This document shows, piece after piece, positions 3,358 to 55,244 of a DNA stretch of 64,000 nucleotides. This DNA is from Limisphaerales bacterium (GTDB taxonomy: Bacteria; Verrucomicrobiota; Verrucomicrobiia; Limisphaerales; JADJPG01). Made by a program: the position numbers and the translations under genes. Under the pieces are notes generated by a model. It had not been told where the DNA came from and made no database searches. It saw nothing but the letters and a program-made list of their open reading frames with translations. The stretch's first letter is position 1. Each line of letters begins with the position of its first letter. The stretch is taken from positions 202,321 to 266,320 of the forward strand of contig JBGATF010000010.1 of the NCBI GenBank assembly GCA_044229355.1, read 5' to 3'.

Positions 3358-3379
3358 GGGCGGGGCGGTTCGGCGGCGC

Positions 3380-6058: not shown

Positions 6059-6082
6059 AACTTTTGACTCTGACCCGTGGGC

Positions 6083-11156: not shown

Positions 11157-11259
11157 ATTATCGGATTCGGGAAGGGGCTCTTAACCGGGATCCGGGCGAT
11201 GGCGGCGGCGGCGCAGGCGGGGCTGGTCTAAGGCTGTGGGTTTGTCGTAGCCTTGGGCT

Positions 11260-12099: not shown

Positions 12100-12130
12100 A
12101 GGGCTGGTTTCCGGGCGGTTCCTGGCGGCG

Positions 12131-12577: not shown

Positions 12578-12601
12578 GGAATAGGCGCGGGATCGCGGCG
12601 G

Positions 12602-29388: not shown

Positions 29389-30189
29389 CTACCGTTGGCT
29401 GCCAACGAATGCGGCGAACAATCCGGCGACGAGCGCGAGGACCAAAAGGCCGAACAAGATCCAGACCACGATGGAGGTGCGGTATTTGATGTGAGGCGTC
29501 TGCTGGATGACGGCTTGATACTCGTCGGAGAACACCGTTTGTCCCTTTTGACTGAAGACGAGGTAGAGGATGTAACCGTTGATCAGCGTCCCGAGCGGGA
29601 ACCCGAGCAGGCCGAGGCCGGAAAGAATTCCGGTGGGGACGCGCGCCCATTTTTGCAGGCGCCGGAGGCCTGTGCCCACCCAGAGCTGGCCCGCGCCCAG
29701 CAAGAGGAGAAAGACTCCGACCAAGATGGCTAACCGGGGGCCATCCCTGGTGATCGACAGGAAACTCATCAATCCGACGAGCAACAGCCCTGCGCCGCCC
29801 AGATAGTAGAGCAGTCCGACCGATTTGATCGATGCTTCGTGTTTGAGGTGCTCCTTTCTCATTTGCTCGGCCGCAGTGCTGCCGCTCGCGCCTTCTTTCA
29901 GCCGCTGCAGGGCGAGGGGTTTGCACGCGGCACAGTAGACCGCGCCGGAGAGCGGGATGACCTCTGCGGCCGGAAAGGTGTGTCCGCAGCCGGCGCAAAT
30001 CGATCCGCTGGTTGCTGCGCGGGGCAGATCGGGTGTGGAGGCGACATGGCCGTACGGCTGCCAGTCGGCCATTCCTTCGCGCCAGACCAACGTTTGGGAA
30101 GTGACGACGCCTTGTTGAACGAGCTGCTGGAATTCATCTTCGTTCACCGGCCCTTTTTGTTCGGCTCCAGTCGCGTAGTGCCAGTTCAT
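29389..30189 (-). CDS. DUF4339 (GYF-like) domain membrane protein with Cys-rich zinc-ribbon-like segment and 4 TM helices
   Basis: Track ORF 29389..30297; the likely start is MNWHYATGAEQKGPVNEDEFQQLVQQGVVTSQTLVWREGMADWQPY (DUF4339 motif W-Y-Y...GP...L..L...G.I...T.VW..GM..W.P) at 30189. Followed by CAGCGH...CAAC and four hydrophobic helices. Confidence 0.55.
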   Translation of the reverse strand: MNWHYATGAEQKGPVNEDEFQQLVQQGVVTSQTLVWREGMADWQPYGHVASTPDLPRAATSGSICAGCGHTFPAAEVIPLSGAVYCAACKPLALQRLKEGASGSTAAEQMRKEHLKHEASIKSVGLLYYLGGAGLLLVGLMSFLSITRDGPRLAILVGVFLLLLGAGQLWVGTGLRRLQKWARVPTGILSGLGLLGFPLGTLINGYILYLVFSQKGQTVFSDEYQAVIQQTPHIKYRTSIVVWILFGLLVLALVAGLFAAFVGSQR

Positions 30190-30230
30190 GCGTGGATTGC
30201 TGGTGTTGCTGAGGGACGGTCGGGGCCAGT

Positions 30231-31136
30231 TCAAGAACGCCGATACTTGGATCCGGACGGCATGGTTTTGAAGCGATCGAGCGCGCTGCGTTTCCAATCG
30301 CCGCCTTCGCTCCCGGAGTGGTGCGTGTAGGGAGTTCCTGTTGTCGACGAAGGGGCGGGCGCGGGCGTGGCCGCACTCGCCGGGGCCGTGTCGCTGGCCG
30401 TCGCCGGAGTTGGCGCCGTCGCTGGCGGGCGCGCGGGCTCAGGAGCCGGGGTGGGCGACGGGCGACGTTCGAAAAACGAGGTCGAGACAAATGCGCTTGG
30501 CGAAGGCGCCGGCGCGGGTGTGGTCGCGGGTGTGGTCGCGGGCGGAGCGGCTGGTGAAACGGCCGGGGGAGCCGGCGTGGCGTGGCGGCTGGGCAGGGGC
30601 GGGGGCGTGGCGAGGTCGGAATCGTCAACCTGCCAGCCGAGGCGGACGCTCGGCGTGGGCCCGACATGCACCTCGACATTTCGGTAATGCAGCGTGGAGA
30701 GGCGGAGCTTTTCGCTGACTCCGTCGGCCTTGGCCAGGGCGGCGAGCAGGCCGTAGATGGTCTGCCGGCTGGAGTGAGTCGACATCAGAGATCGCAGGGT
30801 GGGCTCCGAGACCGCGGAGATTTTGTGGAAATGAACGATCAGGCGCTGGATGGGGCTAATCTCCATGTCGACCGCGGCCAGGGCATAGCCGGCCTCGGCG
30901 AAAACTTCGGCGTGGTCGTTAATCTCCCGCAAGGCCTGGGCGAGGCGATCGTCGCTGTCCGCGCGCAGGCCGGTGACGCTGGATTGGACGTCCATGCGCA
31001 ATTGTTGGAGCTGGCCGGCGGTCATCAGGACGGTATCGCGCAACTGGGCGGCCTGGCCGGGGGCGGCTTCGACGACCTGCTTCAGGTGGGCGGCCTTTTG
31101 GCTGAGGTCCTGGATTTTGGTGATGAACTTTTTCAT
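30231..31136 (-). CDS. hypothetical protein: helical N-domain plus Pro/Ala/Thr-rich disordered C-terminal half
   Basis: 301 aa. MKKFITKIQDLSQKAAHLKQVVEAAPGQAAQLRDTV... then PPPLPSRHATPAPPAVSPAAPPATTPATTPAPAPSP...PAPEPARPPATAPTPATASDTAPASAATPAPAPSST. 40 bp downstream of the giant ATPase gene, same strand. Confidence 0.4.
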   Translation of the reverse strand: MKKFITKIQDLSQKAAHLKQVVEAAPGQAAQLRDTVLMTAGQLQQLRMDVQSSVTGLRADSDDRLAQALREINDHAEVFAEAGYALAAVDMEISPIQRLIVHFHKISAVSEPTLRSLMSTHSSRQTIYGLLAALAKADGVSEKLRLSTLHYRNVEVHVGPTPSVRLGWQVDDSDLATPPPLPSRHATPAPPAVSPAAPPATTPATTPAPAPSPSAFVSTSFFERRPSPTPAPEPARPPATAPTPATASDTAPASAATPAPAPSSTTGTPYTHHSGSEGGDWKRSALDRFKTMPSGSKYRRS

Positions 31137-31177
31137 GGCGGAAGGAGGATCAGGGGAGCGGGCGTCAGGAAGCGGCT

Positions 31178-34100
31178 TCAGGCCGGGGGTGGTTGCGGCG
31201 GCTTGCGTTTGGGCGGCAGCGGGGGTGGGGCGGGATCGTTGGCGGGGTTAGGAGGGGGAGCCGAGCTGTCCTCCTTTTGCTGCAGCACCTCATGAAATTT
31301 TTCGAGGAACGCACGTTCATTGGTGAGCATTTCCTGGGTCAATTCGATCTCGACGGTGCCTTGCTTGGCGCGGGCGGCGAGGAGTTCCTGGGAGGAACGG
31401 AGGTGATCGCGTTGCTGGGCGGCGAGGTCTTTGAGCGTCGCGAGCGTGCTGTGAATCATCTCGAGCTCGTGGGAGAGGCTCTCGACTTTTTCGGCCATGG
31501 CACCGGAGTGGACGGCGGTGATGGCGCGGCTGAGATCCTCGCGCAGGGCCTTGAGGCCTTCGGCCAGTTGGGTGCCGACGCCGTTGCCATCGGGCCGCGC
31601 CGCCGGCGTCGAAGTCGTGGGGGGCGTGGGGGAGGGGACGGCGACCGGAGCCAGGCGTTGTTCGACGGTCTGGCGCAGAGACTCGAGCGTTTGACTGAGT
31701 GGGCTGAGATCGAGGGTCGGCGGCGCGGCTGGTTGGGCGAGGCGACGTTCGAGGGCACTGCCAATGGAAGTGAGGCCTCCACGGAAATCGGAGAGCTGAG
31801 CCACGATGCGGCCGACCGGATCGGAACTGTCCCCGCCGCGCGCGAGCAGGTTTCGGCGAAACGTGGCTTTGATTTCGTCCCACCGGGTTTGTTCAGCGGA
31901 GGAGAGCACGCCGGTGAGCTCTTTGAATTTCAAGAGATTGGCCTCGGCGCCGGTGGTGAGGTTCTGGGATTCGCCGCGATAATGATCGGCGAGGAGGGCG
32001 CGGACCTCCTCGTCGTTCATGGCCGAGACCACCTTTTCCGCGAGCCGGTTCATATTCCGGTAGGAGCCCTGCAGGCGGAAGGGAGGCTCGGTGCGGAACT
32101 CGTCGGCCTGGGCGGCAGAGTGGATATACTCCTGGTTGACGCGAAGGACGACCTCCCGGATGGCGACCAGCTTTTTCAGGACGCCGACGATCTCGTCGAC
32201 GTCCTGCTGGGAGTAGCTGCCTTCGAAGCCGGCCTCGGAGCGCTCGCCGGTGGACGCGAGGCGGATGAAGGCGCGGATGTCGGCCTGGCTCTTGTTGGCG
32301 AGTGGCGCAAGGACGGGATTGGAGGTGACCGCGTTTTCGAGGTAGCTGGCTTTGAACCACTCAGCGCTGCCGCCGATGATGTCGCCGAGGTTGTAGGTGT
32401 CGGCCCGGTTGGCGAGCATGTCGGGCAGCTTGAATTTCTGGCCGGTCTCGGTGTAGGGGTTGCCGGCCATGACGACGACGACCTTGCGTCCGCGCAGGTC
32501 GTAGGTGCGGGGGCGTCCACGCCAGACGCCTTCGATTTTTCTCTGTCCGTCGCAGAGCGAGATGAATTTCTGGAGGAACTCGGGGTTGGTGTGCTGGATG
32601 TCGTCGACGCAGATCATGACGTTGTCGCCCATCTCGAGCGACAGGTTGAGCTTCTCGATCTCTTCCCGGGCGGCGGCGTTGGGCGCTTCGGCCGGGTCGA
32701 GCGACGTGACGGCGTGCCCGAGGGCGGGGCCGTTGATCTTGACGAAGATGATGCCGAGCCGGCTCGCGATGTACTCCATCAGCGTGGTTTTGCCATAGCC
32801 GGGCGGGGAGATGAGGAGGAGCAGGCCCATCAAGTCGGTGCGTTTCGCGTCGCCGGCGGCGCCGATCTGCTTGGCGAGATTGTCGCCGATGAGCGGCAGG
32901 TAGACCTCGTCGATGAGCTGGTTGCGCACGAAGGACGTGAGGACGCGGGGCTTGAGTTCGTCCAGACGCAGCGGGGCGCGCTCGCGGTCGATGAGCTGCT
33001 GCTTGAGGCGGTGATATTGCTGAAAGCGCGGGACGACGTCGCGCTCGAAGCGCCGGAGCTTGTCGGTAAACGTGAGGTAGTGAAACGAATAGGTGCTGCC
33101 CTGGACGACGGCGTGGGCGCCCCGCATGCCCTCGAGCATGCGGGTGGCGGTGGCGGCAACCGGGGATCGCTGCAGTGCGTCGCCGCAATACAGGATGGCG
33201 GCGACCTCCTCGCGGTGGTTGGCGGCTTCGGGGCGGTCGAGGAGAAATCCGCGGACCCAGTCGCGGACGAGTTCGAGCTCACTGGCGGGGTGCTGGGCGA
33301 GCGTTTGGCGGGCTTGGGCAAACCCGGCGTCGCTGCCCTTGCCGGCGAGGTGGCGGGCGAACGCCGCGGCCAGTTGGTCGGCCTCCTGGCTGACGACGAA
33401 GCGGTCGTCGCCGACAAGTTCGTGGAAAAGATATTCGCCGGCGTCGGCGGCGATCGCGACGGGAAAAAGCGCGGTTTGTTCGATGAACGCGATGACGAGC
33501 GCCTGCAGTCCGCGGATGTAATCCAACTGGGCTGGGTCCCCGGGGAAGATGCGATTGCGTGCGGCGAAGCCTTTGAGCTTGGCGTCCCAGAGGGCGCGGG
33601 TCTCCGCCGGGCAGAACCGGTGCCAATAGACGAGGGCGCAGGCGCGGGCATCGGGATGGTAGCGGGCGAGCTGCAGCGCGACGTGAATCTCGGCGAGGGC
33701 GCGGAAGATCCTGGCGCCGTCGAGATCGTGAACGCCTTTGGTATAGCCTTCCTGGTAACGGCCGTTGATGAACTCGAGAAGGATGGCGTGGAGTTCGTCA
33801 TCGCTCAGTTTAACCGCGCCCGTCAGGTCGATCTTCCCGGCGCCCGAATCCGGGGGTGACTGCGGGATTGCGCGGGCCGGCGTCGTGGCTGTTCCGCCGG
33901 TTCCGGCGGGGGGGGCTGACGGGATCGACAAGGCTCCGTCGAGGGCCGCCTTGAGAAGTTGCCAGGCCAAATATTCGGCCCGGTAGACGGTGGCGTTTTC
34001 CGAGATGACTTCCTGGTCCCAGACGTCGCGGGTGGCGGCGAAGGCGTCGTCGTTGACGGGCTGGAAGAACCGGGTGCTGGTGAGGTGCAGGTGCGGGACG

Positions 34101-36823
34101 CCGTCGCGGTTGACGAGGGTGAGGTCGAGCGGCTGGGTGTTGATGTTGAACCGGTGGCGGCCGAGGCGGATGACGGGGGTTCCGCCGACGAAGAGCTCCC
34201 GGCGATCCTTGAGCTGGCGGATGGCATCCTGCTGGGCGCTTTTCAAGCGGCCCTGGAGGTCGTCGGCCTTGACCGAATCCTCGAGCGCGAGGAGCTGGGC
34301 GATGATCTCGCGCACCTTGGTGATCATCTGATCCGACGCCATGTAGGCGTGGATTTCCTCGAGCGATTTGAACCCGGCCAGCCGGTTCTGGACGACCTTG
34401 AGAATGCGTTCGGCGGCGGTCAGGAGCGCGGCGGCGCGGCGGTGGCGCTGTTCCACGAGGGCGACCTTGCGCTGTTCAAACGCCTCGTAGAGGGACGAAC
34501 GTTTCTCGGCCAGCTCGACGGTGTATTCTTCGAAATCAGCGAAGGCGCCCTCGAGTTCCTCGAGCTGGACGGAGAGGCGATTGAGGTAATCGTCGCACTT
34601 GCCCGGGGTGTCGCACAGGTCGACGTAGCTGGCGGCCGACTGGCTGAGCAGCTTCATCTGCGCGCCAAACTGGGCGGCGCCCTCGGCGGCGACGAGGGAC
34701 TGGAGGCGCTTTTTCAGCGCGGCCTTGACCTGGTTCAGGGTGGAATAAATCGCTGTGATGCTGTCGATGATCCGCGTGGTCTCGGTGGCGTCGTCGATGC
34801 GCAGGCTGTTGACGATTTCAATCAGCATCTCCAGCTCGCTGCCGGCCGCGGCGGTGGCCTTCTCAATCTGGCGGCCTTCGGCGGCCTTGGTGATTTTCTC
34901 GACGGCGGCGAGCTGGGCGTCGGCCTGTTGCCGATAGGGGTCGAGGGCGGCGGGTTTGAGCAGGAACTGGACGCAGGCCCGGGCCAACTCGTCGGTGCGC
35001 TCGATGACAGCCTGCTCGGACTGCGAGATTTGGGTCAGGTCGACGTAGCGGACCTCCTTGAGCGCGATCAGCTCGCCGCGGAGCTGACGCAAGGCGGTGA
35101 GATTTTGGACGAACTCCTCGAGGCGGTTGAGGCTGGAGCGGCGGACGAGTTGAAAGCGCTCGTCGCAGCGTTGGCGGGCGTCCTTGACCCGCTGCGCAGC
35201 CTCGCGTTGGAGGCGGCGAACCTTGTCGAATTCGTCGACGGCCTGATCGGCGGCGTCGCGCACGGCGCGGACGGCGGCGTCGATCTGGTGGCACTCGGCG
35301 TGAGCGAGCCAGGGGTAGGAGTCGAGCAGGGCGTTGCTGCGTTTGACGAGGTCGACGTAGAGCTCGGCGTAGGGATGTTCCTTGCGCGCGAGGGTGAGGA
35401 TCTCCTGACATTCGGCCAGGGCGCGAACAACGTCCTTGTTGCCGACCTGGTACAGAAACGCGTCCTTTTGGCCCGGAGGCTCGTGGCCGGGCAGGTGGAA
35501 GGGCGTCTGGCGGAGCTGCACCATGTGGTGCTTCTGCGGCTCCGCGTCGGCGCGAAAGAGCAGAAGGTTGCCATCGGCGAAGAGGGAGAAGCCATGGCAG
35601 GTGATGCGTTCCTCGACGCGCTGGGCGATGAGGCGATAGGGCATCAGCACATATTCGCCCGTGTCGTGGGCGTAAAAGACGTAGAGGGTGTCCTCGCCAT
35701 TGGGGGCGGAGACCACCCGCTCCAGGGTCAGGCCGGTTTCGCGGCCGTCAAATTGTTTGAGCTCGCCGGTCCCGAGGTAATAGCCGTCGGGGAAGATGAG
35801 GCCGTGCTCCTCGGGCAGGCGGCAGCATGATTGGCCGATGGAGTCGACGCGGACGACGGACTGCTGCTTTTCGTTGAAGATGAAATAGCGGGCGGCGCGT
35901 TCCTTGTACGGCCGGATTTTCAGGAGGATCAGGTGATCGAGAATGGCGTAGGCGATCTCCGCGTCGTCGACCTTTTGAAACTTGTCATCGACCGGCTCGG
36001 CGTGAATGCCCTCGCCGGTCGCGGTGTTGTCTTCGACCTTGATCGTCAGGTCGCCGCCGACGCATTCGACAAAGACGCGATCCTCGATCGAGATGTGGGG
36101 ATGATCGCCGTAGCGGAAGGACTCGCGATCGGGCGTGATCCAACGAAAATCGTGGGGCGGCGGGAAGGCGGACTTGCGGAATTCGGTTTCGCTGCGGCCG
36201 TCGAGGTAGCGAAGCTGGCCGCCATTGAATTCCCATTTGAAGACGGCGAGGTCGTTCAGGGCCGGGCCGATGGAGAACACCATGTACAACCGGCCGGCGA
36301 GGAGCGAGAACTTGGCGAAGGCGGCCTTCTCATAGACGTTGTAGAGCCGCTTGAAGTCGGCGATGAAGTTCTTGTCCTGGAGAATCTCGACGCCGACGTC
36401 CCGAAACGTGCCGGCGGCCATGTCTCGCTCATAAACGGCGAAGACGTCGGGCAAATCGATCTCCTTTTTCAGGCCGAAACGGACGTTGAAGCCGAAGAGA
36501 AACCGTCCGCGGCCGAGCTGGACCATGTCGCGGGGGATGCAGTTGTGAGCCGTGACGACGCGATCCGCCTGCAGAAGTTTGTATTCGATGGCGCCGAACA
36601 CTTCCTGGCGTCGGGCATCGAGGCGGGCCATGCGTTCGCGCAGCAGGTCGCCCTGGGTCTGCAGCCGCTGGCGGATGAGTTCGTAGGTGGCGCTGCCGAG
36701 GGCGGCGGAGGCATCCGGCGCGGGTCCGGAGCTGGCGGCGCTGGAGGCGGGCGCGGTCGCAGTTGCGTCCGCGGCCGCGGCTGCGGGCGGCATCGGCGTG
36801 GACGTGTCGCCGGGCTCAGCCAT
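31178..36823 (-). CDS. giant (1881 aa) protein with a single MoxR/AAA_5-like AAA+ ATPase module near the C-terminal third, extensive coiled-coil, Pro-rich termini
   Basis: Walker A LLLISPPGYGKTTLMEYIA, Walker B VMICVDDIQ, then ...RKVVVVMAGNPYTETGQKFKLPDMLANRADTYNL (AAA_5-type sensor-1 hhhATxNP and arginine). The N-terminal ~480 aa are beta-rich, the central ~700 aa helical/coiled-coil, and both termini are Pro/Ala-rich. 52 bp downstream of the flotillin gene. Confidence 0.6.
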   Translation of the reverse strand: MAEPGDTSTPMPPAAAAADATATAPASSAASSGPAPDASAALGSATYELIRQRLQTQGDLLRERMARLDARRQEVFGAIEYKLLQADRVVTAHNCIPRDMVQLGRGRFLFGFNVRFGLKKEIDLPDVFAVYERDMAAGTFRDVGVEILQDKNFIADFKRLYNVYEKAAFAKFSLLAGRLYMVFSIGPALNDLAVFKWEFNGGQLRYLDGRSETEFRKSAFPPPHDFRWITPDRESFRYGDHPHISIEDRVFVECVGGDLTIKVEDNTATGEGIHAEPVDDKFQKVDDAEIAYAILDHLILLKIRPYKERAARYFIFNEKQQSVVRVDSIGQSCCRLPEEHGLIFPDGYYLGTGELKQFDGRETGLTLERVVSAPNGEDTLYVFYAHDTGEYVLMPYRLIAQRVEERITCHGFSLFADGNLLLFRADAEPQKHHMVQLRQTPFHLPGHEPPGQKDAFLYQVGNKDVVRALAECQEILTLARKEHPYAELYVDLVKRSNALLDSYPWLAHAECHQIDAAVRAVRDAADQAVDEFDKVRRLQREAAQRVKDARQRCDERFQLVRRSSLNRLEEFVQNLTALRQLRGELIALKEVRYVDLTQISQSEQAVIERTDELARACVQFLLKPAALDPYRQQADAQLAAVEKITKAAEGRQIEKATAAAGSELEMLIEIVNSLRIDDATETTRIIDSITAIYSTLNQVKAALKKRLQSLVAAEGAAQFGAQMKLLSQSAASYVDLCDTPGKCDDYLNRLSVQLEELEGAFADFEEYTVELAEKRSSLYEAFEQRKVALVEQRHRRAAALLTAAERILKVVQNRLAGFKSLEEIHAYMASDQMITKVREIIAQLLALEDSVKADDLQGRLKSAQQDAIRQLKDRRELFVGGTPVIRLGRHRFNINTQPLDLTLVNRDGVPHLHLTSTRFFQPVNDDAFAATRDVWDQEVISENATVYRAEYLAWQLLKAALDGALSIPSAPPAGTGGTATTPARAIPQSPPDSGAGKIDLTGAVKLSDDELHAILLEFINGRYQEGYTKGVHDLDGARIFRALAEIHVALQLARYHPDARACALVYWHRFCPAETRALWDAKLKGFAARNRIFPGDPAQLDYIRGLQALVIAFIEQTALFPVAIAADAGEYLFHELVGDDRFVVSQEADQLAAAFARHLAGKGSDAGFAQARQTLAQHPASELELVRDWVRGFLLDRPEAANHREEVAAILYCGDALQRSPVAATATRMLEGMRGAHAVVQGSTYSFHYLTFTDKLRRFERDVVPRFQQYHRLKQQLIDRERAPLRLDELKPRVLTSFVRNQLIDEVYLPLIGDNLAKQIGAAGDAKRTDLMGLLLLISPPGYGKTTLMEYIASRLGIIFVKINGPALGHAVTSLDPAEAPNAAAREEIEKLNLSLEMGDNVMICVDDIQHTNPEFLQKFISLCDGQRKIEGVWRGRPRTYDLRGRKVVVVMAGNPYTETGQKFKLPDMLANRADTYNLGDIIGGSAEWFKASYLENAVTSNPVLAPLANKSQADIRAFIRLASTGERSEAGFEGSYSQQDVDEIVGVLKKLVAIREVVLRVNQEYIHSAAQADEFRTEPPFRLQGSYRNMNRLAEKVVSAMNDEEVRALLADHYRGESQNLTTGAEANLLKFKELTGVLSSAEQTRWDEIKATFRRNLLARGGDSSDPVGRIVAQLSDFRGGLTSIGSALERRLAQPAAPPTLDLSPLSQTLESLRQTVEQRLAPVAVPSPTPPTTSTPAARPDGNGVGTQLAEGLKALREDLSRAITAVHSGAMAEKVESLSHELEMIHSTLATLKDLAAQQRDHLRSSQELLAARAKQGTVEIELTQEMLTNERAFLEKFHEVLQQKEDSSAPPPNPANDPAPPPLPPKRKPPQPPPA

Positions 36824-39049: not shown

Positions 39050-39262
39050 TTCAGTGGGGTGGGTTCAGCGGTCGGCGTGAGGTGATGGGAGACGGTCCAC
39101 GGGAAACAGCAGCCCGAATTGGTCGGCGGATTCTGGACGGCGTTTCGGACGCACGCCCGTGAGTAGCAAAATCGCCGCAGGCGATCCAATAGAATTTCCC
39201 GGGGACTTTTGAATCGATTTCAATATTCGGGCGCGCAGGGACGTCCAGACTCCACCAACAAC

Positions 39263-40714
39263 ATGAAAACCACCAATCGCCGGACATTTCTCAAGAGCGC
39301 TGCCGTCTCCGCCACCGCGGTGAGCTGGAGCGCCCGATCGTGGGCGCAGGTCGCGGGCGCCAATTCGGACGTGCGCTACGCGGTGATCGGCTTCAACGGC
39401 CGCGGGCGGGACCACTTGGGCGGATTGAGCAAGGTGAAGGGATGCCGGCTGACGGGACTGTGCGATGTGGACAGTGCGGTGCTGGACAAGGAGCGCCAGG
39501 CCTGGGCGGAGAAGGGGTTGGTGACGGAGGCGGTGACGGACCTGCGAAAGCTCCTGGAGAGCAAAAATGTCGATGCGGTTTCCATCGCCACGCCAAACCA
39601 CTGGCATTCGCTCGCGGCGATCTGGGCGATTCAGGCGGGCAAGGATGTGTATGTGGAGAAGCCGGTTTCGCACAACGTATTTGAGGGGCGCAAGCTCGTT
39701 GAGGCGGCGCGCAAATATCAGAAAATTGTCCAGACAGGAACGCAAAGCCGGAGCAGCCAAGGAATCCGCGAGGCCGTGGCCTGGGTGCGCGCCGGCAACC
39801 TCGGCCGGATTCTCGTCGCGCGAGGCCTTTGCTACAAGCCGCGCCCGAGCATCGGGAAGGTCATGGAGCCGCAGCCGCCGCCCGCGACGGTGAATTACGA
39901 TTTGTGGTGCGGTCCGGCCCCCATGGACCCGATCCGCCGCCAGAAGTTCCATTATGACTGGCACTGGATCTGGAACTACGGCAACGGAGACTTGGGCAAT
40001 CAGGGCATCCACCAGATGGACATCGCGCGCTGGTTCCTGGGCGAGATGGAGCTATCGCCGCGTGTTCTCAGCGTCGGCGGACGCCTCGGTTACGACGATG
40101 ACGGCGAAACCGCCAACACCCAGCTGGTGTTCCACGATTACGAAAAGGCGCCGCTGGTTTTCGAGGTTCGTGGCCTGCCTGACCGAAAGGAGGCCAAGGC
40201 CATGAGCACGTATCCCGCCGGCACGGGCGGCAGCGTGGCCGTCGTGGTCCACTGCGAAGGCGGGTACGTGGTCGTGCCCAATTACTCCAGCGCCACGGCC
40301 TACGATCGGGATGGATCCCAAATCAAGAAGTGGTCGGGCTCCTCGGATCACTATCAGAATTTCATCAACGCGGTTCGCAGTCGCAAGCACACCGACCTGA
40401 ATGCGGACATCCTCGAAGGCCATTTGAGCAGCGGACTTTGCCACACCGGGAATGTATCCTATCGACTGGGCCAGCCGGATTCGCTGCCAGCCATGCGGGG
40501 GCGCCTCCAGCGGGACATCGTCAAGAGCGAGGCCTTCGAGCGCATGGTGGATCATCTGCGGGCGAACGAGGTGGACCTGGATCTGACCAAGGCCACCCTG
40601 GGGGTTCCGCTGGCGATGGACGCGAAGGCTGAGAAGTTTGTCGGCAATGATGCGGCCAACCTCCTGCTGACCCGCGAGTATCGCAAGCCGTACGTGGTGC
40701 CGGACGTCGTGTAG
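39263..40714 (+). CDS. Gfo/Idh/MocA-family oxidoreductase with twin-arginine signal
   Basis: Start MKTTNRRTFLKSAAVSATAVSWSARSWAQ (TAT motif RRTFLK). Rossmann VIGFNGRGRDHLGG, family motif EKPVSHNVFEGRKLVEAARKY. Confidence 0.8.
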   Translation: MKTTNRRTFLKSAAVSATAVSWSARSWAQVAGANSDVRYAVIGFNGRGRDHLGGLSKVKGCRLTGLCDVDSAVLDKERQAWAEKGLVTEAVTDLRKLLESKNVDAVSIATPNHWHSLAAIWAIQAGKDVYVEKPVSHNVFEGRKLVEAARKYQKIVQTGTQSRSSQGIREAVAWVRAGNLGRILVARGLCYKPRPSIGKVMEPQPPPATVNYDLWCGPAPMDPIRRQKFHYDWHWIWNYGNGDLGNQGIHQMDIARWFLGEMELSPRVLSVGGRLGYDDDGETANTQLVFHDYEKAPLVFEVRGLPDRKEAKAMSTYPAGTGGSVAVVVHCEGGYVVVPNYSSATAYDRDGSQIKKWSGSSDHYQNFINAVRSRKHTDLNADILEGHLSSGLCHTGNVSYRLGQPDSLPAMRGRLQRDIVKSEAFERMVDHLRANEVDLDLTKATLGVPLAMDAKAEKFVGNDAANLLLTREYRKPYVVPDVV

Positions 40715-46333: not shown

Positions 46334-46641
46334 GCCCTCTCGGCGGCTACCTGCTTCTCAGCGCGGTGCTGTTTTGCGTCGGGCTGGCTGGCGCGCTGGC
46401 GCGGCGCAACGCCATCATGGTCCTGGTGGGCATCGAGCTGATGCTGAACGCGGCGAATCTGAACTTCATTGCCTTCTGGCGATATGGTCCGAACCCGGAA
46501 GCCTTGCAGGGAGTGCTCTTTGTGATCTTCGCGATTGCCGTGGCAGCGGCGGAGGCGGCGGTCGGCCTGGCGTTGATCATCGCCATTTACCGATTCTACC
46601 GGACGACGAATGTGGATGAAGTGGAGGGGATGAAGGGGTGA
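46329..46641 (+). CDS. nuoK: NADH-quinone oxidoreductase subunit K
   Basis: ~103 aa, 3 TM: [41 protein letters not shown]... (ND4L signature). Probable TTG start overlapping the nuoJ stop. Confidence 0.8.
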
Positions 46642-48884
46642 GCTTCGACCCGCGTTATCTTTGGTTGATTCCGGCACTGCCGCTGGTCGCGGCCGGCTTG
46701 ATCGCGCTGGCTCGCCAACCGCGGCGATTGTTGGCCGCGAGCCTGGCCATTGGCGCGATGGTCCTGGCGTTCCTGCTGGCCGTCGCGGCCTTTGGATCGA
46801 CCCTCGGCGGACACGCCACCCCGGTGCAGCGGGTTCATAATTTCGACTGGTTCGTGCTTGGCGAAACCACCTTCCGCCTCGGCTGGCTGCTCGACCCTCT
46901 TTCCGCGGCCATGCTGGTGATGATCACTTTTGTCGGCACGCTGATATTCATCTTCAGCGTGGGCTACATGGCCCACGACAAAAACTTCACGCGGTTCTTT
47001 GGATTTCTCGCCCTCTTTGCCGCGGCCATGCTCGGCCTCGTCATCGCCAACAACCTGCTGTTGCTCTTCATGTGCTGGGAACTGGTGGGGCTTGCGTCGT
47101 ATTTGCTGATCGGATTTTGGTATCACAAGCCCAGCGCGGCAGCGGCGGCGAAGAAGGCCTTCATCACCACGCGGATTGGGGATGTCTTCTTCTTTCTCGG
47201 ATTGCTTTGGCTGAGTGCGGAGACCGGCACGCTGCTGTTCTACGATGGCGGGGCGGGTTGTCTGGAGCAGACGGCCCTCGCGTCGTTGGTCGGCCGGACC
47301 ACGCTGATTGGCATGGGCGTGAGCACCGGAATTTCATTGCTGATCTTTTGCGGGGCGGTTGGCAAGTCCGGCCAGGTCCCGTTGCATGTCTGGCTCCCGG
47401 ACGCCATGGAAGGCCCGACGCCGGTCAGCGCATTGATCCACGCCGCGACGATGGTGGCCGCCGGAGTGTTTTTGGTGGCACGGGTATACCCGCTGATGTC
47501 AGCCGTCCCGGCCGGCGTGGCGGCTGAAGTCGCGTCGCATGGGGCGCCGGCAGCGCTGGTTTCGACCGTGTCCGCGGGGGAAGCACCCGTCCGGGCGGCG
47601 GACGCCGGGACTGGCTCGACCGCGAGCGGGGCGGGCGGGGGCGTACGAGGCTCGACCGGCGAACCGACGCAGGCCGGGCCGGTTTCGTTCGCGTTGCAGG
47701 TGGTGACGTGGGTCGGAGCCATCACGGCGTTGTTCGCCGCACTGGTGGCGGTGGCCCAAACGGACATCAAGCGGATCCTTGCCTACTCAACGGTCTCGCA
47801 GCTGGGCTTCATGTTCATCGGCCTGGGTGTGGGGGGAGTGGCGGTGGGCATGTTTCATTTGCTCACCCATGCGTTCTTCAAGGCGTTGTTGTTCCTCGGC
47901 TCGGGGTCGGTCATTCACGGCTGCCATGAGGAGCAGGACATCCGGCGGATGGGCGGGTTGCGCAAGCTGATGCCGTATACCTTCGCGACGTACGCGATCG
48001 GCATGCTGGCACTCGCGGGTTTCCCGCTGCTCTCCGGATTCTTCAGCAAGGACGAGATTCTGCATTCGGCGTGGCGCTGGTCACCGAGCAAGTGGCCTTT
48101 TGTGTTCGGGCTGGCGGGTGCCTTCCTGACCGCCTTCTACATGACGCGGCAGGTCTGGTATGTGTTTTTCGGTCATCGGGCATCTCATGCTTCGGCGCTC
48201 GGAACTGCGCACGGACCGGCGGAAGTGCACGGAGAGGCTCACGATCCCGGGACCCCGCACGAGAGTCCGCCGGTGATGACAGCTCCGTTGATCATTCTGG
48301 CGGCTTGCACCCTGCTGCTGGGCGCCTTCGGCACCCCGATGTGGCCGTGGTTCCACTCCTACCTGAGCGGACACGGAACGCCGTCCTGGGTCGGCGCGGT
48401 GGGAGTGGAAACGCTGGGGATCATGGCGCTTTCTGCGGTTGTTGCCGTGGGAGGAATGGTCATCGGCTGGCGGTTTTACACCCGGCGGGGTCCGGGGACG
48501 GCGAAGGAACCGGACCCGCTCGAGCGCTGGAATTCCGAATGGTTCGGGGTGTTGCGCGGCAAGTTTTTCATCGACGACCTTTACGAAAAATCCGTGCTCC
48601 GGGCCAATGCCTGGGGCGCGCGCATGGCACGATGGCTGGATGAACGGTTCCTGGGCCTCGTCGTGCAAGCGGTGTCCTACGTCGCGATTGGGCTGTCGTG
48701 GCTGAACCGTCTGGTCGACGAGTATGTGGTCAACTTTGGGTTCGATCGGGGGTGCGGCGGACTGCGGAACGGTGCGCGGTGGGTGTCGTTCTGGCAGAAC
48801 GGCCAGGTGCAGCGGTATCTGCGGGTGATTGGGGTGGCCCTGGTCCTGTTCGCGGTAATCTTTGCGTGGGGAGGCCGACGATGA
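46638..48884 (+). CDS. nuoL: NADH-quinone oxidoreductase subunit L (with ~55-aa low-complexity insertion)
   Basis: [33 protein letters not shown] is the NuoL/ND5 signature. C-terminal long horizontal-helix region. Insertion ...[37 protein letters not shown].... Confidence 0.9.
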
Positions 48885-50437
48885 GGGGTTTCCCGTGGCT
48901 GAGCGCCTTGACGCTGATTCCGCTCCTGGGCGGGTTCCTGGTGGCCGGCCTGGACGCGCGCCGCCGTTGGCTCGCGAAATTTCTCGGGGTGACCTTCATG
49001 TTTGTGGTGCTCGGGTGCACGCTCCATCTCTGGAGAGTGTTCGACGCCACCACCGGTGTGCCGCAGTTCGTGGAGCGCCACGAGTGGATTCCGTCGGTCA
49101 ACGTGCAGTATTTCCTGGGCCTCGACGGGCTGGGGCTGCTCATGGTGTTGCTCGTGGCGATGATCCTGCCGTTCGCGTTGCTGGCGTCGGGGGAGACGGG
49201 TCCGCGGACGAGGGTTTATGTCGCGCTAATGCTGTTTTTGGAGGCGGGGTTGTTTGGGGCGTTCACCGCGCTGAACTTTGTCCATTGGTTTTTGTTTTGG
49301 GAGCTGAGCCTCGTTCCGGCGTATTTCCTGATCAAACTTTGGGGTGGTCCGGAACGCTCGGCGGTGGCCAACCAGTTCTTTGTCTACACGATGGTGGGCA
49401 GCGTGACGCTGCTGTTGTCGATGCTGGCGGTGTTTGCGGTGACAGGCAGCTTCGACTTTCTGGTGCTGGCGGAGAAAGGGCGGAGCGGGGAACTGGAATC
49501 GCTGTTGAACCTGCGAATCCCGGGTCTCTACGGGCTGTCCTCGCGTGGGCTGGCGTTGTTGATTTTTGGCGGGGCGTTCCTCGGCTTTGCCGTCAAGGTG
49601 CCGGTCTGGCCGTTCCACACGTGGCTGCCGGCGACCTATGCGGAGGCTCCGACCGGGGTGTCGATGGTGCTGACGGGAGTGATGTCAAAGATGGGCGTCT
49701 ATGGATTTCTGCGAATTCTGCTGCCGATTTTTCCGGAGCAGATGCGCTGGGCGCAGTCGTGGCTGCTCTGGCTGGCGGTGGCGACGATCGTGATGAGCGC
49801 GTCCGCGGCGTTGGCCCAGCGGGATCTGAAGCGGATGGTGGCCTACTCCTCGATCAACCATCTGGGCTATTGCCTGCTGGGAATTTTTGCAGCCGTGCAA
49901 ATCACCGGGACGGAGCCGCGATGGACGACGGAGAAGGCGGCGGCCTTGAACGGGGTGGTGTTGCAGATGTTCAGCCACGGCATCACGGCGGCGGCATTGT
50001 TTTATTTTGTCGGTTTGATGGAACGCCGGGCGGGCCGGCGGGGGCTGGATGACTTTGGGGGCCTGCGGGCGGTGGCGCCGGTCTTCTGTGGGCTGATGGG
50101 TATTTCCATTTTTGCCTCGCTCGGTCTGCCCGGTTTGAGCGGCTTCGTGGGGGAGTTTTTGATTTTCAAGGGCGTCTTTCCGCTGGCCGGCTGGGCGGCG
50201 GCGCTGTCGGTATTGGGGCTGCTGGTCACCGCGATCTTTTTGCTGACGATTCTACAGCGGGTATGGAGCGGGCCACTGGCGGAGCGCTGGCTGGGATTTC
50301 GGGATCTTTCGTTCGGGGAGGGGCTGTTGGCGGTTCCGGCGCTGGTCCTGATGCTGGTGCTCGGGGTGTGGCCGCAAATCGCGCTGCAAATCATCAACCC
50401 CACCGTGCTCCAGTGGGTGGAGGGACTGAAGGTTTAG
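48882..50437 (+). CDS. nuoM: NADH-quinone oxidoreductase subunit M (copy 1)
   Basis: Track ORF starts at 48698, but the real start is [21 protein letters not shown] at ~48882 (ATGA overlap with nuoL). HTWLPATYAEAPTGVSMVLTGVMSKMGVYGFLR matches the NuoM/ND4 motif. Confidence 0.85.
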
Positions 50438-50438
50438 C

Positions 50439-52034
50439 ATGCTTGCCTGGCCCGTCTATTTATCGTTCATCGGCGTTGCCTGGGTGCTGCTCTTGAAACC
50501 GGACGACGCGGCCGGCGCGCGGCGGGTGGCGCTGTTGTCGGCCGTGGCCGGGCTGGCGTGCGCGCTGGCGGGCGCTTTGCAATACTCGGCGGCGGCGGGT
50601 CTAATCAGCCTCGCCAACGTGCCCTGGGTGCCGGGCCTGGGCATCCGCTATCATCTGGCGGCCGACGGCATCAGTGTGACACTGGTGGTGCTGACCGGGC
50701 TGGCGGCAGTGGTGGGCGTGCTGTTTTCCTGGAATGTTGAGCGCCGGGCGAAGGAGTTCTTTGCGTTCTATCTGGCGCTGATCGCCGGGGTCTACGGCGT
50801 GTTTCTCAGCGTCGATTTGTTTCTGCTCTTTGTGTTCTACGAACTGGCCATTGTCCCCAAGTATTTTCTGATCGCCATCTGGGGATCCACCAATCGGGAA
50901 TACGGGGCGATGAAGCTGGCCCTCTATTCGTTTGTGGGCAGCGCGATGGTGTTGGTCGGGATACTCGCGGCCTTTGTCATGGCGGGGGCCACCACGTTTG
51001 ATCTCACCGAACTGGCGAAGTTTTCCTTCCCGCGGGATTTTCAGATGTGGGCCTTTCCGCTGACGTTTGTCGGTTTCGCGATTCTGGCGGGGTTGTGGCC
51101 GTTTCACACCTGGGCTCCGACGGGCCATGTGGCGGCGCCCACCGCTGCGTCGATGTTGCTGGCGGGCGTCATCATGAAGCTGGGGGCCTATGGGTGTTTG
51201 CGGGTGGCGATGGTCTTGTTTCCGCTGGGGTTGAGTGACTGGACCAGCCCGGTGCTTGGGCTGCATTCGTGGCGGGAGGTGTTTGGGCTGATGGCGGCCA
51301 TCGGCGTGGTCTACGGCGCGACGGTGGCGCTCGTGCAGAAGGATTTCAAATTCGTCATCGGCTATTCCAGCGTGAGCCACATGGGCTTCGTGCTTTTGGG
51401 TTTGATGACCCTGACCACGATCGGCCTGAGCGGCGCGGTGCTGCAGATGTTTTCGCATGGGGTGATCGCCGGACTCCTGTTTGGCGTGGTCGGGCGGATG
51501 GTCTACGAGCGCGCGCACACGCGCGAATTGGAGCAGCTGGAGGGCATGCACCTCGCCCGAAGGATTCCTTTTGCCGCGGTGACCTTCGTGATCGCCGGAT
51601 TGGCGTCGATGGGCCTGCCGGGATTCAGCGGCTTTGTGGCCGAGTTCCAGGTCTTGATTGGCGCGTGGCAGGCGTTCCCGGGCTTTGGGGTGCTGGCGGG
51701 CGCCGGGATTGTGATTGGAGTGGCCTACACGCTGCGTGTGGTGCAGAAGGCGTTTTTCCACGATGCGGCCATGGCTGTCGCCGCCCCCGGTCCGGTGGCA
51801 GCGACGGGCCCGGCTGGCGGCATGGGGGCGGCCGTCCACGCGGCCGGACCTGCGTCGGAGGCGGAGGCGGATCATGAGTTTGCGGAGATCAGCGTCCCGG
51901 AGCGGCTGGGGGCGATTCTGCTGATCGCGACCACGCTGATCATCGGCCTATTCCCGCGGCTGCTGCTGGATCTGATTGCGCCGGCGCTGCACTCACCACT
52001 GTTCGAGAAAGTGGTGAAAGGAGGCGGTCAATGA
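50439..52034 (+). CDS. NuoM-like antiporter subunit (copy 2; paralogous second M)
   Basis: HTWAPTGHVAAPTAASMLLAGVIMKLGAYGCLR is a NuoM-type motif (not the NuoN WxPDxYEGAP). 531 aa with a ~45-aa Ala/Gly-rich insertion near the C-terminus. Confidence 0.75.
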   Translation: MLAWPVYLSFIGVAWVLLLKPDDAAGARRVALLSAVAGLACALAGALQYSAAAGLISLANVPWVPGLGIRYHLAADGISVTLVVLTGLAAVVGVLFSWNVERRAKEFFAFYLALIAGVYGVFLSVDLFLLFVFYELAIVPKYFLIAIWGSTNREYGAMKLALYSFVGSAMVLVGILAAFVMAGATTFDLTELAKFSFPRDFQMWAFPLTFVGFAILAGLWPFHTWAPTGHVAAPTAASMLLAGVIMKLGAYGCLRVAMVLFPLGLSDWTSPVLGLHSWREVFGLMAAIGVVYGATVALVQKDFKFVIGYSSVSHMGFVLLGLMTLTTIGLSGAVLQMFSHGVIAGLLFGVVGRMVYERAHTRELEQLEGMHLARRIPFAAVTFVIAGLASMGLPGFSGFVAEFQVLIGAWQAFPGFGVLAGAGIVIGVAYTLRVVQKAFFHDAAMAVAAPGPVAATGPAGGMGAAVHAAGPASEAEADHEFAEISVPERLGAILLIATTLIIGLFPRLLLDLIAPALHSPLFEKVVKGGGQ

Positions 52035-53533
52035 ATTACACGCAGTTGTTGACCGGGCTTGGTCCGGAGGCGCTGGTTGTGCTGGCGGTGCTGGGCGTGC
52101 TTTTCGTGGATGCCGCCGTGATGCGGGGTGAGACGGTGTCAGCGCGGTTGCGTTGGGCGGCTGGCCTGACGGTGTTCGGTTGTGGAGCGGCGGCGGCCGC
52201 GCTCTATCTGCTGCCTTCCGCAACGCCGCTCGAATTGGGGGGCGGGATGATTGAGATCAATCCACTGACGCAGCTCGTCAAGACCGTCCTGCTGGTGTTG
52301 GCGGCGGCCACGGCGTTGATCTCAATGGATGGGCGGTTCACGCGCCATGTGGGTGAGTATTACGCGCTGCTGCTGCTCGCAACCGTGGGCGCGATGTTCC
52401 TGGTCAGCGCGGGCAATGTCCTGATGATTTTCGTGTCGCTGGAGTTGCTGAGCCTGTCGCTTTATGTGCTGACCGCGTTCAATAAAGCGGATGTCCGCGC
52501 GGCGGAATCGGCCTTGAAATATTTTTTGTTTGGCGGCATCTCCGCGGCGTTTTTGCTGTTTGGGTTGAGCCTGTTTTATGGGCTGACCGGAACGCTTTCC
52601 TTGCGGGAGATGGCGCCCCGCCTGGCCGGCTCGGCCGGGGATCCGCTGGTGGTGATGGCGACCTTGATGGTGTTCATCGGTTTCGGCTTCAAGGTGGCGG
52701 CGGTGCCGTTTCACCTGTGGGCGCCGGATGCGTATCAGGGCGCTCCCTTGCCGAGCGCGGCTTACATCGCATCGGCGTCGAAGGTGGCGAGCTTCTATGT
52801 GCTGGCGCGGTTGCTGATGACGGGCTTGAACGGAGTCGAAGGCAGCGGGGGCTGGCATGGCTTCAACGCCGGCTGGGTGCCGGTGCTGGCGGTCGGAGCC
52901 GCGCTTTCGGTGGTCGTCGGCAATCTGGCGGCGATTGCGCAGGGCAGCGTTCGCCGCTTGCTGGCCTATTCCGCGGTGGCGCATTCCGGTTACATGTTGA
53001 TTGGTGTCCTCGCGGGCCACAAATCCGATGGGCTGGCCTCGTTGCTTTACTATGTCACGACCTACGCGGTCACGGCCGTGGGGACGTTCGCGGTTGTTGG
53101 GTTGGTGCAGTCCCGGTCGGGAGACGATCATCTCTCGGCGTTCGCCGGATTGCGGCATCGCTCCCCGCTGCTTTCGGTCTGCCTGATGGTCTTTTTGTTG
53201 TCCATGGCGGGGATCCCGCCGCTGGCCGGTTTCTTTGGCAAATTTTACCTCTTCAAGGCGGCCCTGTTTGAATCGGGGACGACGCAACAGACGACGTTGC
53301 TCTGGCTGGTGGTTCTGGCGATCGCGATGAGCGCCGTGTCGCTGTATTACTACCTTCAGGTTTTGAAGCAGGTTTTCGTCGTCGATCCGCCCCCGGGCGA
53401 GCCCAAAGTGCAGGCGGACCCGTTAACGCATTGGGTCATCGGGTTGGCGGGTCTGGCGGTCGTGGTGCTCGGTTGCCTGCCGGACCTGCTGCTGTCTCCG
53501 TTGGCGCTCGCGATAAAAGCTGCGGGGCTGTAG
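52031..53533 (+). CDS. nuoN: NADH-quinone oxidoreductase subunit N
   Basis: HLWAPDAYQGAPLPSAAYIASASKVASF is the NuoN/ND2 signature. Overlaps the previous stop (ATGA). Confidence 0.85.
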   Translation: MNYTQLLTGLGPEALVVLAVLGVLFVDAAVMRGETVSARLRWAAGLTVFGCGAAAAALYLLPSATPLELGGGMIEINPLTQLVKTVLLVLAAATALISMDGRFTRHVGEYYALLLLATVGAMFLVSAGNVLMIFVSLELLSLSLYVLTAFNKADVRAAESALKYFLFGGISAAFLLFGLSLFYGLTGTLSLREMAPRLAGSAGDPLVVMATLMVFIGFGFKVAAVPFHLWAPDAYQGAPLPSAAYIASASKVASFYVLARLLMTGLNGVEGSGGWHGFNAGWVPVLAVGAALSVVVGNLAAIAQGSVRRLLAYSAVAHSGYMLIGVLAGHKSDGLASLLYYVTTYAVTAVGTFAVVGLVQSRSGDDHLSAFAGLRHRSPLLSVCLMVFLLSMAGIPPLAGFFGKFYLFKAALFESGTTQQTTLLWLVVLAIAMSAVSLYYYLQVLKQVFVVDPPPGEPKVQADPLTHWVIGLAGLAVVVLGCLPDLLLSPLALAIKAAGL

Positions 53534-53769: not shown

Positions 53770-55101
53770 TTAGAATCTTAACGAAGCATCGACCTGGAGA
53801 CGGCTCATGTCGCTATTCGATCCGGCCGGGGTCTCATTGATGTTGAACGCCCGGAAGTAGCTAACCGTAAGGGTGAGCGCATCGGTGGGTGAGTAAGAGG
53901 CCTTGACCACATGGCCTCGCACGTTGGTCCCGGCGACGTAGCCGCTGAGGCCGGAGTTGGGATAGGCGGCTTCGTTGAAGGCTCCCCAGTCGGAGTCGGT
54001 CATCTCCTCGTACCACATGTCGCCGCCCATGTATTTGTAGCGGTAGGTGAGGTCCCAGAGTCCGCGCTTGCCGGACTTGCCGAGGGTCAGGCCGACGTCC
54101 CACCCGATATTCCGCTCGTCGGCGGCGACATTGTTGACGTAATCGCCGAAGAGTTTGATGGGGAAGGCGGCGTTGTAGAGGGGAAACGACTCGAGGGTGT
54201 AGGTGAGGGCGGCGTCGAGGATAACCGGGTTGAAATTAACGGCGGGAGCCGTGCTGGCCTTCCGCGTGTTGCCGCCATTGACATTGGGGACATTCGCCGA
54301 GATGAGGTTCTCGTCGTTGGCGATGGAGAGCATGGCGGCGCCGAGCGAAGAGGAGAATTGCTGGCTCCAGCGGGCGTCCCAGCGGATCTGTGCGCCAACC
54401 AGGAACGGGTCTTGGGCGTCGGTGGCCAGTTCGTCCAGCACGAACGCGCCCCCATTGAACTTGAGGGAGTGGTTGTCGTTCGCCCGATAGGTCAGGTTGA
54501 GACCGCCGCCTTCCGGCGTGTAGTCATTGTCGAAAATCATGTCGGAGACCGTGAACGGGTTCTCCATTTTGCCGATGGTGACCGAGCCGCTGAGTTCCTT
54601 GCTGTTGAGGAACGCCCATTTGCCGTAGGCGAGATCGATGTAGACGAACTTCTTCGCCGCGTTGTCGCGCAGCGTGGTATTGCCGGAAATGGGATCGCCG
54701 CCAAATGATCCCGAAGGATCGCTAGACGTCAGGCGGAAGCCGACTTCAAAATTGTCCTTGATGGTGGCGACAGCTCCGACGCGGAGGCGATAGCGCCAGC
54801 GATTGCGTTGGATGAAGGCATCATTGTCGGAAAAGAAACTCTCGAATCGTCCGCGAAAATCGCCGTTCAGCTTGAGAGCCGTGACCCAGTCCAGCATGCC
54901 ACTTCGGACCTGGTAGGACTTCTGAAACCCTTTGTCGGTTTCGGTTTTGAGGTCGTTGGCCTCCTTGGCGGTGAGCACGCCCTTGTCGACGAGTTTGTTG
55001 AGCAAGGCGTCGGCAGACTGGGCCGCAGCCTCGGTCCCCGCCAGGGCGGTGGCGGCCAGGCCCGCAGCGATGGCGGCGGGCTTGAGATCGATAGTTTTCA
55101 T
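53770..55101 (-). CDS. putative outer-membrane beta-barrel porin
   Basis: Likely start MKTIDLKPAAIAAGLAATALAGTEAAAQ (signal). N-terminal coiled-coil/periplasmic segment, then alternating-hydrophobic beta strands. The C-terminal ...RLQVDASLRF ends in Phe, typical of OMPs. Confidence 0.55.
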   Translation of the reverse strand: MKTIDLKPAAIAAGLAATALAGTEAAAQSADALLNKLVDKGVLTAKEANDLKTETDKGFQKSYQVRSGMLDWVTALKLNGDFRGRFESFFSDNDAFIQRNRWRYRLRVGAVATIKDNFEVGFRLTSSDPSGSFGGDPISGNTTLRDNAAKKFVYIDLAYGKWAFLNSKELSGSVTIGKMENPFTVSDMIFDNDYTPEGGGLNLTYRANDNHSLKFNGGAFVLDELATDAQDPFLVGAQIRWDARWSQQFSSSLGAAMLSIANDENLISANVPNVNGGNTRKASTAPAVNFNPVILDAALTYTLESFPLYNAAFPIKLFGDYVNNVAADERNIGWDVGLTLGKSGKRGLWDLTYRYKYMGGDMWYEEMTDSDWGAFNEAAYPNSGLSGYVAGTNVRGHVVKASYSPTDALTLTVSYFRAFNINETPAGSNSDMSRLQVDASLRF

Positions 55102-55244
55102 GATGGTGTCAGACAATCGGAACATTTGGAGTTCGTGAGGAGGCTAGGAGCCGTTCGTTACGGGTGTGCGGCGCAATTGTTACGAATGCGTGAACTGTGG
55201 GCCGGCGCCTCGACAAGCCCCGGGTGGGCAGCGAGGGGCGCGGT

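Follow-up and report, generated by a model that had tools for sequence, protein, structure and literature searches.

A giant DUF3686-family AAA+ ATPase with a predicted MoxR-like fold and a linked flotillin-like gene in a Limisphaerales bacterium

In bacteria, flotillins and PspA have been linked to the organisation of the membrane, to envelope stress and to tolerance of antibiotics, and we know of no energy-consuming machine that remodels either of them. The closest described arrangement is the PSP-associated operon of Ravi et al. 2024 (mSystems, PMC11237479), in which an ATPase of the family studied here has a flotillin-like neighbour. Its components include a YqiJ/YuaF-type 3TM gene, and some of the operons in proteobacteria also have a PLD/HKD hydrolase. 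Abbreviated operons that lack PspA were found there to be widespread, with the suggestion that PspA may be encoded elsewhere, and a chaperone-like or ESCRT-like role in sub-membrane dynamics was proposed; the AAA+ clade of the ATPase was not assigned. Shewanella SO1376-SO1377 represents a two-gene YqiJ-YqiK version that does not include the ATPase, and the ATPase is mentioned neither in a 2009 paper on SPFH evolution nor in a 2026 paper on Pseudomonas SPFH proteins. Our literature searches found no mention of DUF3686 or PF12458 and nothing relevant on 'DNA repair ATPase' combined with flotillin or on flotillin combined with MoxR, and neither experimental work on the DUF3686-AAA+ family nor a related solved structure was found in the literature or the PDB.

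The 64,000-nucleotide stretch of DNA analysed here (the window) carries a version of this operon, in which a flotillin-like gene, the ATPase gene and a third gene, p301, follow one another on the reverse strand (Table 1). The result is confirmatory, since the operon type had already been described computationally in 2024; new in the present analysis are the placement of the ATPase by structure as MoxR-like, the invariance of DD in its Walker B, a count of how often it is linked to flotillin and the case against the name that the family carries in public databases.

Table 1. Positions in the window of the cassette genes and of the parts of the ATPase.
Feature	Residues	Nucleotides	Strand	Basis or remarks
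p301	301 aa	30231..31136	-	41 nt past the ATPase stop; conserved ~175-aa N-domain and Pro-rich tail
ATPase, whole ORF	1881 aa	31178..36823	-	DUF3686-DUF7902-AAA+ protein; public name 'DNA repair ATPase'
N-terminal extension, Pro/Ala-rich, lineage-specific	1-45	36689..36823	-	Low alignment occupancy
DUF3686 domain	61-503	35315..36643	-	Long N-terminal helix, ~29 beta strands, C-terminal helices
Helical arm	504-872	34208..35314	-	Composition, Pfam
DUF7902, within the arm	626-708	34700-34948	-	Pfam
Conserved middle domain, with insert at aa 951-1000	873-1060	33644..34207	-	Alignment
Pre-AAA linker region	1061-1329	32837..33643	-	aa 1180-1329 modelled
AAA+ core and lid	1330-1525	32249..32836	-	Pfam, alignment, AF2 model
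Walker A, SPPGYGKT	1339-1346	32786-32809	-	
Walker B, MICVDD	1403-1408	32600-32617	-	
Sensor-1/Arg stretch, MAGNP...ANR	1452-1473	32405-32470	-	
Post-lid helical domain, conserved	1526-1700	31724..32248	-	Invariant PPFxLQGSYR; GSYR at nt 32057-32068
C-terminal tail, lineage-specific, Pro-rich end	1701-1881	31181..31723	-	Occupancy 0.2-0.4
Flotillin-like partner gene	724 aa	36875..39049	-	51 nt upstream of the ATPase

The original prediction had named misassembly of several genes as an alternative to a giant intact protein. The ORF opens with ATG and contains no internal stops, and an identical 1881-aa protein is already present in an NCBI-derived collection; among the matches listed, the closest relatives are Verrucomicrobiota (Limisphaerales-type) MAGs. 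Fifty-four diverse full-length homologues, 1550-2036 aa in length, align collinearly with it at 30-48% identity, and because the domain order is identical in all of these, a fusion artefact is excluded, as are misassembly and a chance ORF. DUF3686 is matched at 546.5 bits against a gathering cut-off of 25 (E 5e-164) and DUF7902 at E 9e-25, and DUF7902 and the one C-terminal AAA module occur in the same order and at roughly the same positions as in other family members, the AAA module lying near aa 1130-1650 in every full-length one. The ATPase is a genuine, intact member of the DUF3686-AAA+ family (PF12458 and PF25472), and no transmembrane segment is found in its 1881 residues. Alignment occupancy is ~1.0 over most of the protein and falls to 0.2-0.46 at aa 1-45, 951-1000 and ~1700-1881, which places the conserved body at aa ~45-1700. 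The Pro/Ala-rich termini that had been pointed out are present as described; because occupancy there is low, they are lineage-specific and not family features, and together with the aa 951-1000 insert they are what this protein adds to other PF12458/PF25472 proteins. G+C in the window is 60-68%, for which reason many long spurious ORFs overlap the ATPase gene.

A genome scan placed the family in at least 588 species, from which 80 loci were fetched. The phyla represented include Verrucomicrobiota, Planctomycetota and Bacteroidota, other loci come from Desulfobacterales, Clostridia and Myxococcus, and members are carried on megaplasmids and plasmids as well, namely pQBR103 and plasmids of Hymenobacter, Deinococcus and Streptomyces.

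The ATPase contains a single AAA module, as originally proposed, which is matched by Pfam AAA at aa 1335-1455 and by AAA_5 at aa 1335-1463, and no second P-loop was found in the protein. Midasin and dynein differ in having six concatenated modules per chain; with one module per chain, any ring formed by this ATPase must arise by oligomerisation. The Walker B motif follows the pattern hhhhDD, with DD in place of the usual DE, and the residues K1345 and T1346 of Walker A, D1407 and D1408 of Walker B, N1455 (in GNPYTE) and R1473 (in PDMLANR) are invariant across 55 sequences, which bears out the sensor-1 asparagine and arginine expected at MAGNP...R. The AAA core is 60-84% identical to the window copy across phyla.

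To which AAA+ clade does this module belong? Its earlier description as AAA_5/MoxR-type fits the modelled fold and is left equivocal by sequence, where AAA outscores AAA_5 both in the full-length protein (PF00004 at 27.6 bits; PF07728 at 22.1 bits, with a cut-off of 22) and in the isolated module (30.8 versus 26.9 bits), and where both profiles match 40 of 40 isolated family modules. Searches of PDB sequences with the single protein, a full-length profile and an AAA-only profile returned only P-loop-level matches to p97 and RuvB, the profile matches being confined to the beta1-Walker A-beta2 stretch of those proteins, and for this reason the clade cannot be assigned by sequence. Weak RuvB_N and RuvB matches likewise fall on the P-loop. 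The segment from beta1 to beta2 resembles p97/Cdc48 at the sequence level; after beta2 there is no aromatic pore-loop motif, the conserved sequence at that point being GHxVTSLDP, and its absence makes a threading mechanism uncertain. In an AF2 model of aa 1180-1720 (pLDDT 90.1) a pre-sensor-1 beta-hairpin, with its strands at model residues 250-255 and 258-263, comes after Walker B and before sensor-1, there is no helix-2 beta-hairpin but a short helix and a conserved loop at model residues 186-203, and the best structural matches of the module are CbbQ and NorQ, with 13-14% sequence identity to MoxR structures. We conclude that the module forms an AAA+ lineage of its own, with a modelled fold that comes nearest to MoxR.

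Comparison with the MoxR and vWA pairs CbbQ/CbbO, NorQ/NorD and RavA/ViaA shows how far this protein departs from them. It is ~6 times larger, its model lacks the helix-2 beta-hairpin, its Walker B is DD and not DE, its beta1-beta2 segment is classic-AAA-like in sequence, and it has no vWA/MIDAS partner. The original prediction had seen neither a vWA partner nor a MIDAS motif, and both statements hold: none of the ORFs scanned within ~10 kb of the ATPase has a vWA match in Pfam, there is no DxSxS motif in the ATPase, the flotillin-like protein, p301, the GYF protein or the GT2 protein, and no vWA family appears among the conserved neighbours across 81 loci.

The N-domain had been suggested to be beta-rich, and an AF2 model of aa 30-520 (pLDDT 91.6) agrees, with ~29 strands in a DUF3686 domain that is predicted to be divergent and beta-propeller-like; the 13 residues at the start of the model (aa 30-42) have a pLDDT under 50. 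The arm that follows is helix-favouring by composition, with G+P at 2-5% and AELKRQ at 55-62%, and is probably a coiled coil; a weak PADLOC LmuB match at aa 565-908 (7.9e-6) is read as coiled-coil-type similarity. The helical or coiled-coil stretch of ~700 aa proposed earlier is recovered in this arm and in aa 1180-1329, where the model has helices and a small beta element, but it is not uniform, since aa 873-1060 form a separate conserved domain. This middle domain has no Pfam match, contains the invariant residues D873, G888, E942, G1030, H1032 and D1035 and an invariant G-x-H-D-x-D motif, and is broken by the lineage-specific insert, which is rich in Pro and Gly. In the post-lid domain, R1589 at the end of the invariant QGSYR motif is a candidate sensor-2 arginine.

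The usual companion of the ATPase gene is the flotillin-like gene. Of the 65 loci that have more than 2.6 kb of upstream sequence, 62 carry it upstream of the ATPase gene and in the same orientation; the remaining three have no flotillin-like neighbour. The two genes are tightly linked across phyla. In the 724-aa protein, an N-terminal TM helix, a divergent SPFH/band-7 region and a long coiled coil rich in Glu and Ala are followed by a flotillin-type (YqiK-like) C-terminus; NCBI, JGI and RefSeq give its homologues the names 'flotillin family protein', 'YqiK' or 'SPFH domain-containing protein'. Because no more than 2 of 24 diverse family members give a Pfam Band_7 match (best E 8e-7) and the family profile recovered neither a flotillin nor HflK/C from PDB sequences, the SPFH assignment is indirect, being transitive and based on third-party annotation. 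Further components vary between loci. A ~225-aa YqiJ/NfeD-like (3TM) membrane protein, with sub-threshold but consistent Pfam matches to YqiJ_N and NfeD, precedes the flotillin-like gene in 54 of 81 loci, and CesT_Tir_1 and PspA_IM30 extend the operon in 14-16 Bacteroidota loci and on one Hymenobacter plasmid, which reproduces the full version of the operon of Ravi et al. Thirteen of the Bacteroidota-type CesT/PspA loci also have a divergent LexA-like HTH-S24 regulator. Some Bacteroidota have ORFs between flotillin and ATPase; these encode small, unrelated proteins and do not amount to a conserved part of the operon. The cassette of P. fluorescens pQBR103 comes after yjfK/L/M/C-like genes, and a PLD family gene lies ~8.6 kb downstream. 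Compared with the published operon, the window cassette is more reduced, with no PspA, CesT or YqiJ anywhere in the 64 kb, and has p301 in addition. No terminator-like site is present in either of its intergenic gaps (flotillin-ATPase and ATPase-p301), which makes co-transcription of the cassette plausible.

The most likely role for the ATPase is in remodelling membrane-associated protein assemblies, with none in DNA repair. We hypothesize that it is a soluble cytoplasmic protein whose single MoxR-clade motor would form a ring, as MoxR ATPases do, and whose N-terminal helix, beta-propeller-like domain, ~370-aa helical arm and middle domain would serve as an adaptor in cis, standing in for the vWA/MIDAS adaptor. 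The gene would be co-transcribed with that of the membrane-anchored flotillin/YqiK-like SPFH scaffold and the two proteins would act together, such that propeller and arm may dock beneath the inner membrane on assemblies of flotillin (and of PspA/ESCRT-III-like proteins), and ATP hydrolysis by the ring may assemble, disassemble or remodel these assemblies or their clients in envelope maintenance or stress. We give slightly better than an even chance to this specific model, in which a MoxR-like motor carries its adaptor in cis and acts on or with flotillin (and PspA) assemblies. Several observations weigh against it: gene linkage is not proof of physical interaction, the flotillin-like partner is very divergent, the window has none of PspA, CesT and YqiJ, the Walker B is DD, no aromatic pore-loop motif is present and three of 65 loci lack flotillin.

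The public name would instead make the ATPase a repair factor, for example an SMC/Rad50-like or RuvB-like one. That name follows the Pfam description of PF12458 as an 'ATPase involved in DNA repair', and NCBI calls homologues 'DNA repair ATPase'; the RuvB-type P-loop matches, the match of the arm to the SMC-like LmuB, ligA at 8 kb from the ATPase in the window and the LexA-like regulator beside some Bacteroidota operons would be in keeping with it. However, these SMC-like and RuvB-like similarities are at the level of coiled coil or P-loop only, the protein has no repair-type domain and no conserved repair neighbour, and nothing that we found in the literature supports the name, so that a repair function appears improbable in the extreme. 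An ordinary MoxR chaperone that inserts metal cofactors or activates enzymes in the manner of CbbQ/O and NorQ/D, with its vWA partner encoded elsewhere, would fit the best structural matches and the JGI name 'MoxR-like ATPase' given to one homologue, but the absence of vWA from the conserved neighbour families and from ~10 kb in the window, the missing MIDAS motif, the ~1300 extra residues that supply built-in adaptor domains and the consistent partnership with flotillin make it very unlikely.

Two further alternatives keep the membrane scaffold and change what is done with it. In one, the ATPase would belong as NTPase to a mobile system for conflict or for defence against phages, with the scaffold as sensor or effector. 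The patchy distribution over many phyla, the megaplasmid carriage and the combination of a giant NTPase with propeller and coiled coil that is common in conflict systems speak for this, and the weak nSTAND_NTPase5 matches in 8 of 40 AAA segments, the PLD/HKD hydrolase of some proteobacterial operons (Ravi et al.) and the PLD gene downstream on pQBR103 could be read in the same way. Yet no PADLOC-DB v2 model matches the cassette beyond weak LmuB and PD-T4-6 (0.004, on p301), homologues number 0 in 50,697 phage records, the core cassette carries neither a toxin nor a nuclease as effector, conservation of the AAA core across phyla reaches a degree not seen in fast-diversifying defence genes, and the window flanks are housekeeping genes and not a defence island; we consider a defence role distinctly doubtful. 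Somewhat less doubtful, although still unlikely, is that the ATPase serves quality control by unfolding or extracting client membrane proteins that the flotillin cage corrals, comparable in function to FtsH in HflK/C but without a protease domain, and leaves the scaffold itself unchanged. The recurrence of AAA+/SPFH pairs, the p97/Cdc48-like beta1-to-beta2 segment and the topology, with a cytoplasmic ATPase and an N-terminally anchored partner, argue for it, and the overall fold that is MoxR-like and not classic-clade, GHxVTSLDP in place of an aromatic pore-loop motif and the lack of a conserved protease partner in the neighbourhood argue against it.

Scaffold remodelling, the preferred reading, can be taken one step further. 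A 2025 review states that bacteria have no known Vps4-like ATPase and that the roles of PspA's band-7 partners are undetermined. The DUF3686 ATPase could supply the ATP-driven remodelling that has been missing for sub-membrane scaffolds in bacteria, as a MoxR-derived ring that by means of its propeller and helical arms builds or dismantles flotillin cages and, where present, PspA/ESCRT-III polymers; we advance this tentatively and regard it as less probable than the general model, and if it were true the ATPase would be a functional analogue of Vps4. Vps4-ESCRT-III (Snf7/PspA superfamily) likewise joins an AAA+ ATPase to a PspA/ESCRT-III-like polymer, the coupling here being genomic and found in part of the family, with a role in polymer dynamics as a proposal. 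FtsH-HflK/C and prohibitin-m-AAA protease have in common with the present pair an AAA+ ATPase and an SPFH membrane scaffold, which is a functional analogy only. The family is widespread, its catalytic core is highly conserved and its linkage to flotillin is tight. With a MoxR-like motor, a putative cis adaptor instead of vWA and a flotillin partner, it becomes a tractable candidate for a scaffold-remodelling activity, under a corrected annotation.

The ends of the window cassette were also delimited. Upstream of the flotillin gene, the ORF at 39065..40012 (-) appears to be an Arg-rich antisense artefact of a GFO_IDH_MocA gene on the forward strand and is not counted in the operon. Downstream, p301 is not a displaced PspA, CesT or YqiJ (hhalign probability <=5%), and a weak PspA_IM30 match (E 0.015) looks like coiled-coil noise. 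In 4-5 related Verrucomicrobiota loci a p301 homologue comes right after the ATPase gene in the same orientation, and two loci, L007 and L008, have one close by on the other strand. Restricted to close Verrucomicrobiota relatives, p301 makes a third cassette gene that is specific to this lineage.

The giant ATPase (the 1881-aa DUF3686-DUF7902-AAA+ protein of the family publicly named DNA repair ATPase) carries a conserved middle domain at residues 873-1060 that matches no Pfam model. Residues D873, G888, E942, G1030, H1032 and D1035 are invariant, with the motif GVHDxDA, and this domain is a candidate binding site that could even be catalytic. The Walker B motif of the same protein reads hhhhDD in all 55 of the 55 aligned family members, as opposed to the usual hhhhDE, and such an invariant DD pair might correspond to slow or regulated hydrolysis.

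Features of the window and of homologous loci in other genomes (L-numbers)
Feature	Position	Strand	Remark
p301, 301 aa	30231-31136	-	41 nt downstream of giant ATPase
Giant ATPase middle domain (aa 873-1060)	33644-34207	-	
Giant ATPase Walker B	32600-32617	-	
GYF_2-domain protein gene	29389-30297	-	
Arg-rich ORF, 315 aa	39065-40012	-	directly upstream of flotillin gene
GFO_IDH_MocA oxidoreductase gene	39209-40714	+	
ORF, 1270 aa	24080-27892	-	
Proton_antipo_M gene run, four genes	46638-53533	+	
Putative porin gene	53770-55125	-	after Proton_antipo_M run, opposite strand
ORF, 2126 aa	56137-62517	-	
HTH + peptidase S24 (LexA-like) regulator, listed examples	L013:2038-2748; L024:1913-2731; L083:247-1032		
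P. fluorescens pQBR103 cassette locus (L082)	NC_009444.1 86965-106335		

The p301 protein belongs to no Pfam family; its conserved N-domain of ~175 aa is accompanied by a Pro-rich linker and, at the C-terminus, by a short basic motif (RFKxMP...). Its conservation is confined to close Verrucomicrobiota relatives, where the homologue lies on the same strand in five loci (L001, L002, L003, L004 and L006); in two others, L007 and L008, it has the opposite orientation. Comparison by hhalign showed no relationship of p301 to PspA, CesT or YqiJ. The neighboring GYF_2-domain protein weakly matches GltJ, a gliding-motility protein, over the latter's GYF region, and its own listed TTG start creates a 67-nt overlap with the end of p301, so the true start probably lies further downstream. 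On the other side of the cassette, the Arg-rich ORF most likely represents an artefact antisense to the oxidoreductase gene, whose product gives a weak, sub-threshold TAT signal match.

In Bacteroidota, the CesT-PspA-YqiJ-flotillin-ATPase operon is adjoined at ~13 loci by a divergent HTH-S24 regulator resembling LexA, which suggests that this extended operon is under the control of a self-cleaving repressor. The cassette is also carried by pQBR103, a 425-kb environmental megaplasmid, where it is directly preceded by yjfK/yjfL/yjfM/yjfC-like genes (DUF2491, DUF350, DUF1190 and glutathionylspermidine synthase-like) and a phospholipase D family gene lies ~8.6 kb downstream.

Elsewhere in the window, the 1270-aa ORF joins a prolyl oligopeptidase (S9 propeller and catalytic domain) to a C-terminal PhoD-like phosphatase domain in what looks like an unusual fusion. 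The 2126-aa ORF contains four lamin-tail domains, a CotH kinase and immunoglobulin domains, and the four consecutive Proton_antipo_M genes encode Mrp or complex-I antiporter-like subunits. GC skew of the plus strand is strongly positive (0.17-0.22) over 1-14000 and 30000-36000, where the long genes examined, the giant ATPase included, lie on the minus strand; the coding strand of these long genes is therefore C-rich relative to G.
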